Assembly (NCBI RefSeq): GCF_003334405.1
Contig: NZ_QOWM01000005.1
Strand: one strand, 5' to 3'
From: Escherichia coli
Lineage (GTDB): Bacteria; Pseudomonadota; Gammaproteobacteria; Enterobacterales; Enterobacteriaceae
Length of the DNA: 64,000 bases
In this document: one piece after another, positions 4,493 to 51,022 of the stretch
Numbering within the stretch: position 1 is the stretch's first letter
Layout of the letters: each line of letters starts with the position of its first letter
The notes under the pieces: generated by a model
What the model was told of the DNA's origin: nothing
The model's input: the letters and a program-made list of their open reading frames with translations, nothing else
Databases searched by the model: none
Made by a program: the position numbers and the translations under genes

Positions 4493-5815
4493 TTATTCGC
4501 TGATACGGCGATAGACAGTTGGTGTGCTTTCCGGTGCTTTATCGGCAAGTTTAATTGCCGCTTTCACCGCTTTCGCCGCTTCCTGCCAGCTGTTTTCGTC
4601 TTTCGCGTGGATAACCGCCAGCGGACGCTGACCGTCTACCTGGTCGCCCAAACGCGCCATATCAGTAAAGCCGACGCTGTAATCAATGGTGTCAGATGCC
4701 TGACGACGACCGCCGCCCATTGCAACCACTGCCATCCCCAGCGCGCGGGTATCCATTTCACTGACAAAACCTTCGGTATCAGCATAGACTGCTTTCGTCA
4801 GCATCGCTGTCGGCAGATACTTCGCGTAGTTCTCAACGAAGTCGGTCGGGCCTTTTTGTGCCGCTACCATACGACCAAAGACTTCTGCCGCTTTACCGTT
4901 GTCCAGCACCGCCTGCAATTTCGCGCGCGCTTCGGCGTCATCTTTCGCCAGTTTGCCGGAGATCAGCATCTCCACGCACAGCGCCATCGTGACATCAAAC
5001 AGACGCGGGTTACGATATTCACCCGTCAGGAACTGCACCGCTTCACGAACTTCAACCGCGTTACCTGCACTGGAGGCCAGTACCTGATTCATGTCGGTGA
5101 GCAGCGCGGTGGTGCGCACGCCAGCGCCGTTAGCCACGCCAACAATCGCTTCGGCAAGGGCTTCAGAGAGTTCGTAGGTCGGCATAAACGCGCCGCTACC
5201 CACTTTCACGTCCATCACCAGCGCGTCCAGACCTTCCGCCAGTTTCTTCGCCAGAATAGAGGCGGTGATCAGCGGGATGGAGTCCACGGTTGCGGTAATA
5301 TCACGGGTCGCGTAGAAACGTTTATCCGCCGGAGCCAGTGAGCTGGTCTGACCGATAATCGCCACGCCGACGTCTTTAATAATTTCGCGGAAACGGTTGT
5401 CATCCGGGAAAATGTCGAAGCCAGGGATGGATTCCAGTTTGTCGAGCGTACCGCCAGTATGACCGAGGCCGCGACCGGAGATCATCGGAATATAGCCGCC
5501 GCAGGCTGCGACCATCGGCCCCAACATCAGCGAAGTCACATCGCCGACGCCGCCGGTGGAGTGTTTATCAACAATCGGGCCATTCAGATGCAGGCTTTTC
5601 CAGTCGAGAACGGTTCCTGAATCTCGCATCGCCATGGTCAGCGAGACACGCTCAGGCATTGTCATATCGTGGAAGAAAATGGTCATCGCGAGGGCGGCAA
5701 TCTGCCCTTCGGAGATAGTGTTGTCGCGAATACCGTTGATAAAGAAACGAATTTCTTCATCGCTTAGCGCATGACCATCACGTTTTTTACGAATAATTTC
5801 TTGTGCGAGAAACAA
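4493..5815 (-). CDS. deoA: thymidine phosphorylase
   Basis: 440-aa [28 protein letters not shown] with TTG start codon. Confidence 0.96.
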
Positions 5816-5825
5816 GGTAACCTCC

Positions 5826-5938
5826 CGAGGAAAAGAGTATGAGGCGGCTTTTGCCGGATGCGTCTACGCCTTATCCGGCCTACGGGTAGATACGTCTCGT
5901 AGGCCTGATAAGCGCAGCGCATCAGGCGTAAAGCATCT
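5826..5938. repeat. REP-type palindromic elements in the deoC-deoA intergenic region
   Basis: gccggatgcg...cgccttatccggcctac and inverted partner cctgataagcgcagcgcatcaggc. Confidence 0.6.
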
Positions 5939-5941
5939 TAC

Positions 5942-6721
5942 TTAGTAGCTGCTGGCGCTCTTACCGTCGCCGTGGCCCAGCGCTTTCAGCAGGCTTGCCA
6001 GCAGGCTGGAAGCACCAAAGCGGTAGTGACGCGCATCAGCCCAGTCAGCACCGAACAGTTCATCTGCGATGGCGAGATATTTCTGCGCATCTTCCGCAGT
6101 ACGCACGCCGCCCGCCGGTTTGAAACCAACGGTTTTTTCTACGCCCATATCACGGATCACTTCCATCATGATGCGCGCGCTTTCCGGCGTCGCGTTCACA
6201 GCCACTTTACCGGTAGAGGTTTTGATGAAGTCCGCACCCGCTTTGATGGAGATTTCAGACGCTTTACGGATCAGCGCTTCGTCTTTCAGTTCGCCGGTTT
6301 CGATGATCACTTTCAGCAGTACATTCGCTGCCGCGCAAGCCTCTTTACAGGCTTTCACCAGGTCAAAACCAACCTGCTCGTTACCCGCCATCAGCGCGCG
6401 GTACGGGAACACAACGTCAACTTCATCTGCACCGTAGGCGATTGCCGCACGGGTTTCTGCCAGCGCGATTTCGATGTCATCGTTACCGTGTGGGAAGTTG
6501 GTTACCGTAGCGATTCGGATTTCCGGGGTGCCCTGCTCTTTCAGCGTTTTGCGAGCAATCGGGATAAAGCGAGGATAGATACAGATAGCGGCGGTATTGC
6601 CGACCGGAGTTTTGGCCTGATGACACAGAGCAATTACTTTCTCGTCGGTGTCGTCGTCATTCAGGGTGGTCAGGTCCATCAATTTCAGTGCACGCAGGCT
6701 GCTTGCTTTCAGATCAGTCAT
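5942..6721 (-). CDS. deoC: deoxyribose-phosphate aldolase
   Basis: 259-aa product from ATG at 6719-6721 ([24 protein letters not shown]); the ORF track extends to an upstream TTG. Confidence 0.95.
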
Positions 6722-6765
6722 TTCATTCTCCTGGCTTGTCGCCAATAAAATTCACCTTGCGAGTT

Positions 6766-6781
6766 TGTTAGTATTCTAACA
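6766..6781. promoter_or_regulatory. DeoR operator O2 at deoP2 (imperfect palindrome tgttagtattctaaca)
   Basis: 16-bp palindrome 45 bp upstream of deoC ATG; exactly 600 bp from the perfect copy at 7366. Confidence 0.7.
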
Positions 6782-6979
6782 TCTACTCCGCAACACACTT
6801 CGATATACATCACAATTAAGGAAATCTACTTACAAGTTTGCATCACTGTAATGCGATCTGGTTCAAATAATTCACTTTCAAATGAATGCGTCAGTGGTGG
6901 CAAACGCATCAGGATCAAAGTGAACATCACGAAACTTCTTACAATGGCGCATCACCTTCGGCATAAAAAGGAACAGAAG

Positions 6980-8530
6980 ATGTCCACTTCTCATGAAAAT
7001 GCACTGCAACAACGTTGCCAGCAAATTGTCACCAGCCCAGTGCTTAGCCCGGAGCAGAAGCGCCATTTTCTGGCACTGGAAGCAGAAAACAATCTGCCTT
7101 ACCCACAGCTGCCTGCCGAAGCCCGCCGCGCGCTGGATGAAGGTGTAATCTGCGATATGTTTGAAGGTCATGCGCCGTACAAACCGCGCTATGTCTTACC
7201 CGATTACGCCCGTTTTCTGGCGAACGGTTCCGAATGGCTGGAGCTGGAAGGCGCGAAAGATCTTGATGACGCACTCTCTCTGCTGACCATTCTTTACCAC
7301 CACGTACCGTCGGTCACATCGATGCCGGTCTACCTGGGGCAACTGGATGCGTTGTTGCAACCGTATGTTAGAATTCTAACACAAGACGAGATCGATATTC
7401 GAATAAAACGTTTCTGGCGTTACCTCGACAGAACCCTGCCAGACGCCTTTATGCACGCCAATATCGGCCCGTCTGATTCGCCCATTACCCGTGCAATCTT
7501 ACGTGCAGACGCAGAGTTGAAGCAGGTTTCACCGAACCTGACCTTTATCTACGATCCTGAAATCACCCCTGATGACCTACTGCTGGAAGTGGCGAAGAAC
7601 ATCTGTGAATGTAGCAAACCGCACATCGCCAACGGTCCGGTGCATGATAAAATTTTCACAAAAGGGGGCTACGGGATTGTGAGCTGTTACAACTCACTGC
7701 CGCTGGCGGGTGGTGGCAGCACGCTGGTACGCCTTAACCTGAAAGCCATTGCCGAGCGCAGCGAATCGCTGGATGACTTCTTTACGCGCACTCTACCGCA
7801 CTACTGCCAGCAGCAGATCGCCATCATCGATGCGCGGTGTGAATTCCTCTATCAACAATCACACTTCTTTGAGAATAGCTTCCTGGTGAAAGAAGGGCTG
7901 ATTAACCCTGAACGTTTTGTGCCAATGTTTGGCATGTATGGGCTGGCGGAAGCGGTTAACTTGCTGTGTGAGAAAGAAGGGATTGCCGCGCGCTACGGTA
8001 AAGAAGCCGCCGCAAATGAAGTGGGTTATCGCATCAGCGCGCAACTGGCGGAGTTTGTCGCCAATACCCCCGTGAAATATGGCTGGCAAAAACGCGCCAT
8101 GTTACACGCACAGTCGGGGATCAGTTCCGATATCGGCACCACGCCGGGCGCGCGTTTACCCTATGGCGATGAGCCAGATCCGATCACCCATCTGCAAACT
8201 GTCGCCCCGCATCATGCTTATTATTATTCCGGCATCAGCGACATTCTGACGCTCGACGAAACCATCAAACGTAATCCGCAGGCGCTGGTACAGCTTTGCC
8301 TCGGTGCCTTTAAAGCCGGAATGCGTGAATTTACCGCCAATGTCAGCGGTAACGATCTGGTTCGCGTTACCGGTTATATGGTGCGTTTGTCGGATTTAGA
8401 AAAATATCGCGCCGAAGGTTCACGCACCAACACCACCTGGCTGGGCGAAGAAGCCGCACGCAACACTCGTATTCTGGAACGCCAGCCGCGCGTGATAAGC
8501 CATGAACAGCAGATGCGCTTTAGTCAGTAA
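6980..8530 (+). CDS. yjjI: YjjI-family glycyl-radical-enzyme-like protein (516 aa)
   Basis: ORF from ATG 6980 ([17 protein letters not shown]); track ORF extends upstream to 6851; 3' end overlaps yjjW by 29 bp. Confidence 0.9.
7366..7381. promoter_or_regulatory. DeoR operator O1 at deoP1 (perfect palindrome tgttagaattctaaca), inside yjjI coding sequence
   Basis: perfect 16-bp palindrome; 600 bp from O2. Confidence 0.75.
7645..7660. promoter_or_regulatory. candidate distal DeoR operator OE (tgataaaattttcaca, 12 of 16 matches)
   Basis: lies exactly 279 bp beyond O1, the spacing I recall for OE; weaker palindrome. Confidence 0.45.
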
Positions 8531-9365
8531 GATTATCCCCTTCTCCTGCGTTGACGGGCCAGGCAGTCGTCTGGCTCTGTTTTTGCAGGGCTGCAATCTG
8601 CGCTGCAAAAACTGTCACAATCCGTGGACGATGGGGCGCTGTAATCATTGCGGAGAGTGCGTGCCACAGTGTCCGCATCAGGCGTTGCAGATTGTTGACG
8701 GCAAAGTGGTGTGGAACGCTGCGGTCTGCGAGCAGTGTGATACCTGCCTGAAGAGGTGTCCGCAACATGCCACGCCGATGGCGCAATCCATGAGCGTGGA
8801 CGAAGTGCTTAGCCATGTCCGCAAAGCGGTGCTGTTTATTGAAGGGATAACGGTAAGCGGCGGCGAAGCCACGACCCAACTGCCGTTTGTAGTGGCGCTG
8901 TTTACTGCTATCAAAAACGATCCGCAACTGCGCCATCTCACCTGTCTGGTGGACAGTAACGGCATGTTGAGCGAAACCGGCTGGGAAAAATTACTCCCGG
9001 TGTGTGACGGCGCAATGCTCGATCTCAAAGCATGGGGTAGCGAATGTCATCAACAATTAACCGGACGCGATAATCAGCAGATTAAGCGCAGCATCTGTTT
9101 GCTGGCAGAGCGCGGCAAGCTGGCGGAACTGCGTTTGCTGGTAATCCCTGGCCAGGTGGATTATTTGCAACACATCGAAGAACTGGCGGCGTTTATCAAG
9201 GGACTTGGCGATGTTCCGGTACGCCTGAACGCGTTTCATGCCCACGGCGTGTATGGCGAGGCGCAAAGCTGGGCGAGCGCCACGCCGGAAGACGTTGAGC
9301 CGTTGGCTGATGCATTAAAGGTGCGCGGGGTGGGCCGGTTGATATTTCCGGCGCTGTATTTGTGA
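8502..9365 (+). CDS. yjjW: glycyl-radical enzyme activating protein (radical SAM, ferredoxin-like Cys clusters)
   Basis: 287-aa ORF with CxxCxxC-type cysteine motifs ([32 protein letters not shown]). Confidence 0.9.
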
Positions 9366-9366
9366 C

Positions 9367-9870
<504 letters not shown>

Positions 9871-50191: not shown

Positions 50192-51022
50192 ATGTCTATG
50201 CCATTAAGCAATACCCTTCAGAGCCAAATTATTACAGATAATCACTTCCTTCATCATCCAAAAGTCGACAGTGAGTTAACACGTAAATATGAACGTGCAC
50301 GCCTGGATACGGAAAATATCTATCTTCTGCCTCTTGCTCGTGGCAATAACCATAATTACGATGGAAAAAGCGTTGTCGAAATTAGAAAACTTGATATTAG
50401 TAAAGAGTCCTGGCCATTTAATTATGTGACAGAAGCATGCAGAGAATCCGATGGTATTACAACAACAGGACGTATGCTCTATCGAAACTTGAAAATCACC
50501 TCAGCTTTAGACGAAATATATGGTGGCATATGTAAAAAGGCGCATGCTGCTACAGAATTAGCAGAAGGTTTACGGCTAAATTTATTTATGAAGAGCCCTT
50601 TCGATCCTGTTGAGGACTATACAGTTCATGAAATAACATTAGGCCCTGGTTGCAATGTTCCAGGTTACGCCGGAACCACGATAGGATATATTTCAACCCT
50701 TCCAGTTTCTCAGGCAAAAAGATGGACCAATGAGCAGCCAAGAATTGATATCTATATTGATCAGATAATAACTGTCTCAGGGGTAGCAAATTCTTCCGGA
50801 TTCGCCCTTGCCGCATTACTTAATGCTAATATTGAGATGGGAAATGACCCAATCATTGGTATAGAAGCCTATCCTGGTACCGCGGAGATCCATGCAAAAA
50901 TGGGATATAAAGTTATCCCCGGTGATGAAGATGCGCCACTCAAACGCATGACTCTGCAACCGTCATCTCTTCCAGAACTGTTTGAATTAAAAAATGGTGA
51001 ATGGAATTATATTGGTAAATAG
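50192..51022 (+). CDS. yjiC: uncharacterised protein YjiC (276 aa) on an AT-rich islet
   Basis: ORF MSMPLSNTLQSQIITDNHFLHHPKVDSELTRKYERARLDTENIYLLPLARG preceded by about 660 bp of AT-rich non-coding DNA. Confidence 0.85.
   Translation: MSMPLSNTLQSQIITDNHFLHHPKVDSELTRKYERARLDTENIYLLPLARGNNHNYDGKSVVEIRKLDISKESWPFNYVTEACRESDGITTTGRMLYRNLKITSALDEIYGGICKKAHAATELAEGLRLNLFMKSPFDPVEDYTVHEITLGPGCNVPGYAGTTIGYISTLPVSQAKRWTNEQPRIDIYIDQIITVSGVANSSGFALAALLNANIEMGNDPIIGIEAYPGTAEIHAKMGYKVIPGDEDAPLKRMTLQPSSLPELFELKNGEWNYIGK

Follow-up and report, generated by a model that had tools for sequence, protein, structure and literature searches.

In the 64,000-nucleotide stretch of Escherichia coli contig NZ_QOWM01000005.1 (assembly GCF_003334405.1) analyzed here, which we call the window, three 16-bp palindromic sites lie in and beside the divergent genes deoC and yjjI. 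These sites are very probably the natural DeoR operators O2, O1 and OE of the deoCABD operon, with O1, OE and the promoter deoP1 situated inside yjjI and kept there by selection at the DNA level. The original prediction, made from the letters of the window, had reported palindromes at the following three positions, and all of them are present. Matches are counted against the DeoR palindrome TGTTAGAA.TTCTAACA.

6766 to 6781, no strand assigned: DeoR operator O2, TGTTAGTATTCTAACA, 15 of 16 matches, reading TGTTAGAATACTAACA on the deo strand, at deoP2.
7366 to 7381, no strand assigned: DeoR operator O1, TGTTAGAATTCTAACA, a perfect 16-bp palindrome (16 of 16 matches), at deoP1.
7645 to 7660, no strand assigned: DeoR operator OE, TGATAAAATTTTCACA, 12 of 16 matches, reading TGTGAAAATTTTATCA on the deo strand.

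The DeoR palindromes have been published as TGTTAGAA-TTCTAACA and TGTTAGAA-TACTAACA (PMC5326754), and this pair is identical to the site at 7366 and the reverse complement of the site at 6766. The two promoters deoP1 and deoP2, 599 bp apart, are described as locked by one repressor (PMC3334521). Natural looping by DeoR, a hexamer or octamer, acts in deo over distances of up to about 900 bp (PMC4217526), a limit that the 878 bp between O2 and OE fits. The assignment of the three palindromes to O2, O1 and OE in the original prediction is thus borne out by the published sequences and by a 599-bp spacing found both in the literature and in strain K-12. Both O1 and O2 contain TAGAAT after TGn on the deoC strand (TGnTAGAAT), so that each appears, from its letters, to overlap the extended -10 region of a deoC-directed promoter. 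In O2 this is the deoP2 element TGTTAGAAT on the deo strand with its hexamer at 6773–6778, and in O1 it is that of deoP1 with its hexamer at 7373–7378 on the minus strand. The DeoR half-sites all resemble extended -10 elements.

The distances between the sites in the window are 600 bp from O2 to O1 (7366 minus 6766), 279 bp from O1 to OE (7645 minus 7366) and 878 bp from O2 to OE, the first two as predicted. O2 lies upstream of deoC as claimed, with a gap to the deoC ATG of 44 nt rather than 45. The three sequences occur in K-12 MG1655 at 4616664–79 (O1), 4617263–78 (O2) and 4616385–400 (OE), with the same genes in the same order and with spacings of 599 bp between O1 and O2 and 279 bp between O1 and OE. 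The O1–O2 distance in the window is 600 rather than 599 bp because of a single extra A at 6965, in a run of A residues just before the yjjI ribosome-binding site and after the predicted yjjI transcription start; this base is also missing from the complete E. coli genome that matches best (1401 query bases against 1400). This locus of a close relative differs from the K-12 region in the extra base and in the spacing that follows from it. The O1/O2/OE looping system of K-12 is said to have been established by Dandanell and Hammer in 1985, Valentin-Hansen et al. in 1986, Dandanell et al. in 1987 and Amouyal et al. in 1989, with OE reportedly placed 279 bp beyond O1 by Valentin-Hansen et al. in 1986 and Dandanell et al. 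in 1987.

Allowing at most three mismatches to TGTTAGAATTCTAACA, there are two matches in the window, at 6766 (one mismatch) and 7366 (none), against 0.19 expected from shuffled sequence. OE, with four mismatches, is one of two such sites, the other being at 50979. The sequence match by itself is insufficient for OE, and the support for this operator comes from its exact 279-bp offset together with an extreme conservation of its synonymous sites.

We followed the sites through 80 species-level YjjI loci spanning Escherichia to Proteus, of which 75, from about 25 genera between Escherichia and Hafnia/Edwardsiella, have a readable position and a divergent upstream deoC. O1 is found at yjjI offset +386 in every one of these 75 deoC-adjacent species, perfectly in 53, with one mismatch in 18 and with two in four. 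OE is found at offset +665 and is the same as in E. coli in 63 of the 75. O2 can be recognized in 74 species at the corresponding position, with one to five mismatches and at a distance from O1 that ranges from 567 to 675 bp but is mostly 598–604 bp (52 species); the remaining distances are 567–568 bp (six species), 589–592 bp (six), 596 bp (five), 612 bp (one), 626 bp in Hafnia and 675 bp in Edwardsiella. The last two genera have an intergenic region of about 460 bp and a degenerate O2 with four to five mismatches. The O1–OE distance is constant at 279 bp because it is spanned by indel-free coding sequence. Strict helical phasing between O1 and O2 was considered and rejected, the species spacings showing no clear 10.5-bp quantization.

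The conservation of O1 and OE goes beyond what the protein requires. Synonymous diversity in yjjI, measured per 6-codon window in an alignment of the codons from 69 of the 75 species, is lowest at OE (0.005) and second lowest at O1 (0.025); the mean over the gene is 0.44. At third positions, variability falls from about 0.38 in the flanks to 0.007 in O1, 0.027 in OE and 0.053 in codons 141–146. Among all 16-nt windows of the 1.55-kb gene, the three most conserved are 7404–7419 (rank 1, 0.989), OE and O1. The original prediction was open to refutation by related genomes in which the palindromes are not conserved; in the species compared here, they belong instead to the most conserved DNA of the gene. 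The first-ranked window falls almost entirely within a further element:

7399 to 7418, minus strand: block upstream of the deoP1 -10, CGCCAGAAACGTTTTATTCGA, covering yjjI codons 141–146, including the rare codons CGA and ATA.

We infer that this block contains a weak -35 element and an A/T-rich, UP-like stretch of deoP1. Together, O1 and the block hold the only CGA codon of yjjI, one of its two AGA codons, one of its two ATA codons and one of its three CTA codons, all four of which are rare codons in E. coli.

The four Proteus species provide a natural control. They have no deoC within 4 kb of yjjI, and neither O1 nor OE is present, with 6–12 mismatches to the operators at the corresponding positions. 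There, Proteus YjjI reads VG[ENS]LT and DAVFG, and the codons vary freely. Among 17 diverse YjjI homologues, both operator-encoded positions fall in variable segments. These variable segments, taken with the free codons of Proteus, indicate that the operators were accommodated at permissive sites of YjjI. Residue 131 is Gly (GGA, giving one O1 mismatch) in Hafnia and Edwardsiella and is encoded by AGA or AAA in the core Enterobacteriaceae. The operators now dictate the local codons and residues of yjjI, and do so only in the lineage where yjjI abuts deoC. At the protein level, this corresponds to a change of Gly131 to Arg or Lys and of residues 223–227 from DAVFG to DKIFT. Synonymous diversity is also low (0.10) in a fourth block, at 7865–7880 (TTCTTTGAGAATAGCT, yjjI codons 296–301, FFENSF), 220 bp past OE. 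It is kept in the core Enterobacteriaceae and is not kept in Hafnia, Edwardsiella or Proteus, and on its left side it looks like a DeoR half-site or -10 element (TTTGAGAAT).

The embedding of O1 and OE in yjjI depends on the gene being read as annotated. The genes concerned are the following.

5942 to 6721, minus strand: deoC, first gene of deoCABD, with a translation of 259 aa, annotated as deoC by RefSeq in the matching K-12 and other E. coli regions.
6980 to 8530, plus strand: yjjI, encoding a YjjI-family glycine radical enzyme of 516 aa, identified by its translation, RefSeq and codon-position periodicity, with homologues that carry Pfam PF11230.
8502 to 9365, plus strand: yjjW, encoding a glycyl-radical activating enzyme, from the open reading frame (ORF) list and RefSeq, sharing its first 29 nt with the end of yjjI.

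The gene boundaries agree with RefSeq in K-12 and other E. coli, and the deoC–yjjI intergenic region measures 257 bp in K-12 and 258 bp in the window. In the yjjI frame, O1 covers codons 129–134 (taT GTT AGA ATT CTA ACA) and OE covers codons 222–227 (caT GAT AAA ATT TTC ACA). Across species, codons 2–128 and 147–221 show a variability of 0.38–0.39 at position 3 and of 0.03–0.10 at positions 1 and 2, and distant YjjI-family proteins (35–57% identity) align from about residue 6–20 onward. The third-position pattern and the homologue coverage show that the N terminus of yjjI is coding, and so O1 and OE lie inside the gene. A mis-annotated yjjI start was ruled out on these same grounds, and the divergent gene starting at 6980 with both operators in its coding sequence therefore stands as originally described. 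We found no solved structure for any YjjI relative.

O1 and OE might serve primarily to control yjjI and yjjW, with DeoR acting as an intragenic roadblock or loop repressor and the deoP1 role being secondary. The positions +386 and +665, the enclosure of the predicted yjjI promoter by the O1–O2 loop and the stability of the yjjI/deoC pairing with its embedded operators over some 25 genera all accord with such a role. We nevertheless consider it very unlikely, since O1 coincides with the -10 of a deoC-directed promoter whose promoter-like upstream block is frozen as well, classical genetics attributes all three sites to deo repression, and yjjI–yjjW pairs elsewhere lack the sites.

Slightly less probable still is that OE is not a DeoR site at all and is instead a conserved CRP-like site or an internal promoter element. 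OE differs from O1 at four positions, begins on the deo strand with the CRP half-site TGTGA and reads TGATAAAAT on the yjjI strand, which resembles an extended -10 and has TCGCCA 16 bp upstream. A consensus scan of 6600–7800 returned a single sigma-70-like match, at 7626–7653 on the plus strand, that overlaps OE. The number of matches, however, is at chance level (one found against 1.3 expected), and the CRP chromatin immunoprecipitation (ChIP-seq) peak internal to yjjI lies near O1 rather than OE. Moreover, two Citrobacter loci (L014 and L023) have TGTGAAAA as a variant half-site of O1, and in Enterobacter and its related genera the usual O2 half-site is TGTGAG, which marks this sequence as an accepted DeoR half-site. 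A title in the literature also speaks of three operators. Least probable of all is that the palindromes are conserved for the sake of yjjI itself, through protein, mRNA structure or codon preference, with an incidental likeness to DeoR operators: the sites do lie in a real coding region, could form mRNA hairpins and adjoin a KRFWRY block that is partly conserved as protein even in Proteus, but the frozen third positions and rare codons, the lack of conservation of the operator-encoded residues in the YjjI family, the different residues and free codons of Proteus without an adjacent deoC, and the identity in sequence and spacing to the published operators all speak against it.

Several points weigh against the assignment of the three sites to DeoR and deoCABD as we give it. 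The evidence for DeoR binding at the sites is the K-12 literature of the 1980s; our literature search on DeoR and deoC found no genome-wide DeoR ChIP data, and a genomic SELEX (gSELEX) paper mentions only the DeoR-family protein UlaR. The conservation of O1 may in part reflect its role in the deoP1 -10 rather than as an operator. By sequence match alone, OE is not significant and could be due to chance. OE is also polymorphic within E. coli despite its near-invariance between genera, since enterotoxigenic E. coli (ETEC) H10407 (L085, 5129266–5129281) carries the variant TGTGAAAATTTTATTA, which changes Asp223 of YjjI to Asn. The consensus promoter and terminator scan missed both deoP1 and deoP2, because their -35 elements are weak. 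Finally, our search found no literature that treats DeoR together with yjjI or describes DeoR- or deoP1-dependent yjjI expression.

The way in which the operators of deoCABD work is known from the literature. Multimeric DeoR is described there as binding the 16-bp palindromes, each over the -10 region of its promoter, and as joining the sites in single or double loops of about 600 bp (O1–O2), 279 bp (O1–OE) and about 880 bp (O2–OE). Such looping shuts both deo promoters together. In K-12, deoxyribose-5-phosphate is known to release DeoR. The deoP1 transcript would carry an antisense leader of about 646 nt, running through the 5′ untranslated region, the promoter and the first 387 coding nucleotides of yjjI, and DeoR bound at yjjI +386 and +665 would stand in the path of RNA polymerase transcribing yjjI–yjjW. 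Repression or induction of deo and the anaerobic expression of yjjI could therefore interfere with each other. The suggestion in the original prediction that the loop interacts with yjjI–yjjW transcription is accordingly a plausible hypothesis on architectural grounds. A stronger version would make the deo control region and yjjI–yjjW one coupled switch, in which the bound loop would enclose the FNR-dependent yjjI promoter and DeoR at +386 and +665 would block elongation, the release of DeoR through deoxynucleoside catabolism would let deoP1 fire antisense into the 5′ end and promoter of yjjI, and anaerobic transcription of yjjI would in turn occlude deoP1; we regard this as possible but rather doubtful. 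The long linkage of the two loci over about 25 genera could also point to a role for the uncharacterized enzyme YjjI in the anaerobic metabolism of nucleosides or deoxyribose.

Regulatory sites within coding sequences are already known. Lac O2 lies inside lacZ and gal OI inside galE, and both are auxiliary operators within an ORF that loop with a promoter-proximal operator. The deo arrangement shares this feature of an auxiliary looping operator in coding sequence. In lac and gal, the operator lies in the first gene of its own operon, whereas the deo case puts two operators together with an entire promoter in a different, oppositely oriented gene. Because of this orientation, the regulated deo transcript is antisense to its host gene. 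In purB, a PurR operator within the coding region is a demonstrated roadblock at which the repressor impedes elongation; DeoR at +386 and +665 could act on yjjI in the same way, which for this gene is a possibility. The convergent interference between pR and pL of coliphage 186 offers a further parallel, in that the predicted yjjI promoter (about 6952, plus strand) would face deoP1 (about 7366, minus strand) over some 415 bp, with the difference that the yjjI start is a predicted one. The original work on deo predates the annotation of yjjI, and we found no treatment in the literature of O1, OE and deoP1 as intragenic elements.

The intergenic region contains several conserved elements besides O2, namely the CRP/CytR region, GGATCAAA and the hexamer TACAAT or TACACT. 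On the deoP2 side are two CRP sites.

6799 to 6814, no strand assigned: CRP-1 of deoP2, reading TGTGATGTATATCGAA on the deo strand, conserved across the aligned intergenic regions and reported under the ETEC CRP ChIP-seq peak for yjjI/deoC.
6852 to 6867, no strand assigned: CRP-2 of deoP2, reading TTTGAACCAGATCGCA on the deo strand, likewise conserved between the aligned species, 53 bp from CRP-1.

The 53-bp distance is that of deoP2, whose start falls at 6766 when the CRP sites are placed at -40.5 and -93.5. By analogy, deoP1 would start near 7366. CRP-2 is positioned symmetrically between the divergent promoters, 93.5 bp from the deoP2 start at 6766 and about 92.5–93.5 bp from the predicted yjjI start near 6952, and one CRP dimer at this site might serve both deoP2 and the predicted yjjI promoter.

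The candidate promoter of yjjI consists of two elements.

6905 to 6918, plus strand: predicted FNR site, with conservation limited to its right half, within GGATCAAA.
6940 to 6945, plus strand: predicted yjjI -10, TACAAT, with a start near 6952.

The sequence GGATCAAA (6912–6919) is nearly invariant in 71 intergenic sequences, and every aligned species has TACAAT or TACACT 21 bp downstream of ATCAA. Relative to the FNR site form TTGAT-N4-ATCAA, which in a class II promoter is centered near -41.5, the region upstream of yjjI conserves just the right half, ATCAA, ahead of the TACAAT that gives the predicted start. It looks like a class II FNR promoter in which the promoter-proximal half-site alone is conserved. 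An FNR ChIP peak has been assigned to yjjI, with FNR-dependent expression and a transcription start site listed as "TSS not known" (PMC3688515); converted from older K-12 coordinates, this peak maps to about 6887 in the window. yjjI is co-expressed with anaerobic FNR/Nar genes in both E. coli and Salmonella. A yjjI promoter at the predicted place would be enclosed by the O1–O2 loop and convergent with deoP1.

CRP ChIP-seq in ETEC H10407 detected, 544 bp away from the CRP peak at deoP2, a second peak within yjjI for which the weak site CGTACCGTCGGTCACA is predicted (PMC4287617). This site corresponds to window positions 7306–7321, and given the ±50 bp motif window of PMC4287617, the peak falls about 15–70 bp from the center of O1. 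The peak may mark a genuine but weak CRP site on the downstream side of deoP1. Alternatively, it may stem from deoP1 DNA cross-linked to CRP at deoP2 via the DeoR loop, and the loop is thus a possible explanation for an intragenic CRP peak beside O1.

The operators themselves are textbook material, and the original prediction recognized the known system correctly, with a modest unexplored twist. The present analysis changes little for deo biology. The findings added here, comprising the frozen synonymous sites, the rare codons, the altered residues, the Proteus control and the predicted convergent FNR promoter, are solid and incremental. The locus is a clean natural case in which regulatory DNA overrides the choice of codons and amino acids in a neighboring gene, and it yields a concrete hypothesis for the regulation of the unstudied, FNR-induced yjjI–yjjW. 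A practical consequence concerns genome recoding. A 57-codon E. coli design replaces all AGA codons, and the deo genes do not appear in the main text of the paper that describes it (PMC13287592). Recoding of the AGA at yjjI codon 131 (7370–7372) would alter both O1 and the deoP1 -10. The likely loss of O1 on AGA removal is a caution for such projects.

The pairing of yjjI with yjjW is retained in distant relatives, and two distant yjjI homologues adjoin a radical-SAM activase but not deoC. An Rfam search over 5500–9400 returned nothing but naRNA4, a REP-derived nucleoid-associated RNA (74 bits, 9404–9482, minus strand) directly downstream of yjjW on its 3′ side. The window is 99.0–99.6% identical to complete E. 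coli genomes, with no identical genome among those listed. Positions 1–25000 have a median of 26 matching places per E. coli genome, which points to repeated elements (insertion sequences (IS) or REP), and a Shigella-like or IS-rich lineage of Escherichia is a possible source of the window. Collinearity over 80% or more of positions 1–25000 is seen in only 524 of 5426 genomes.

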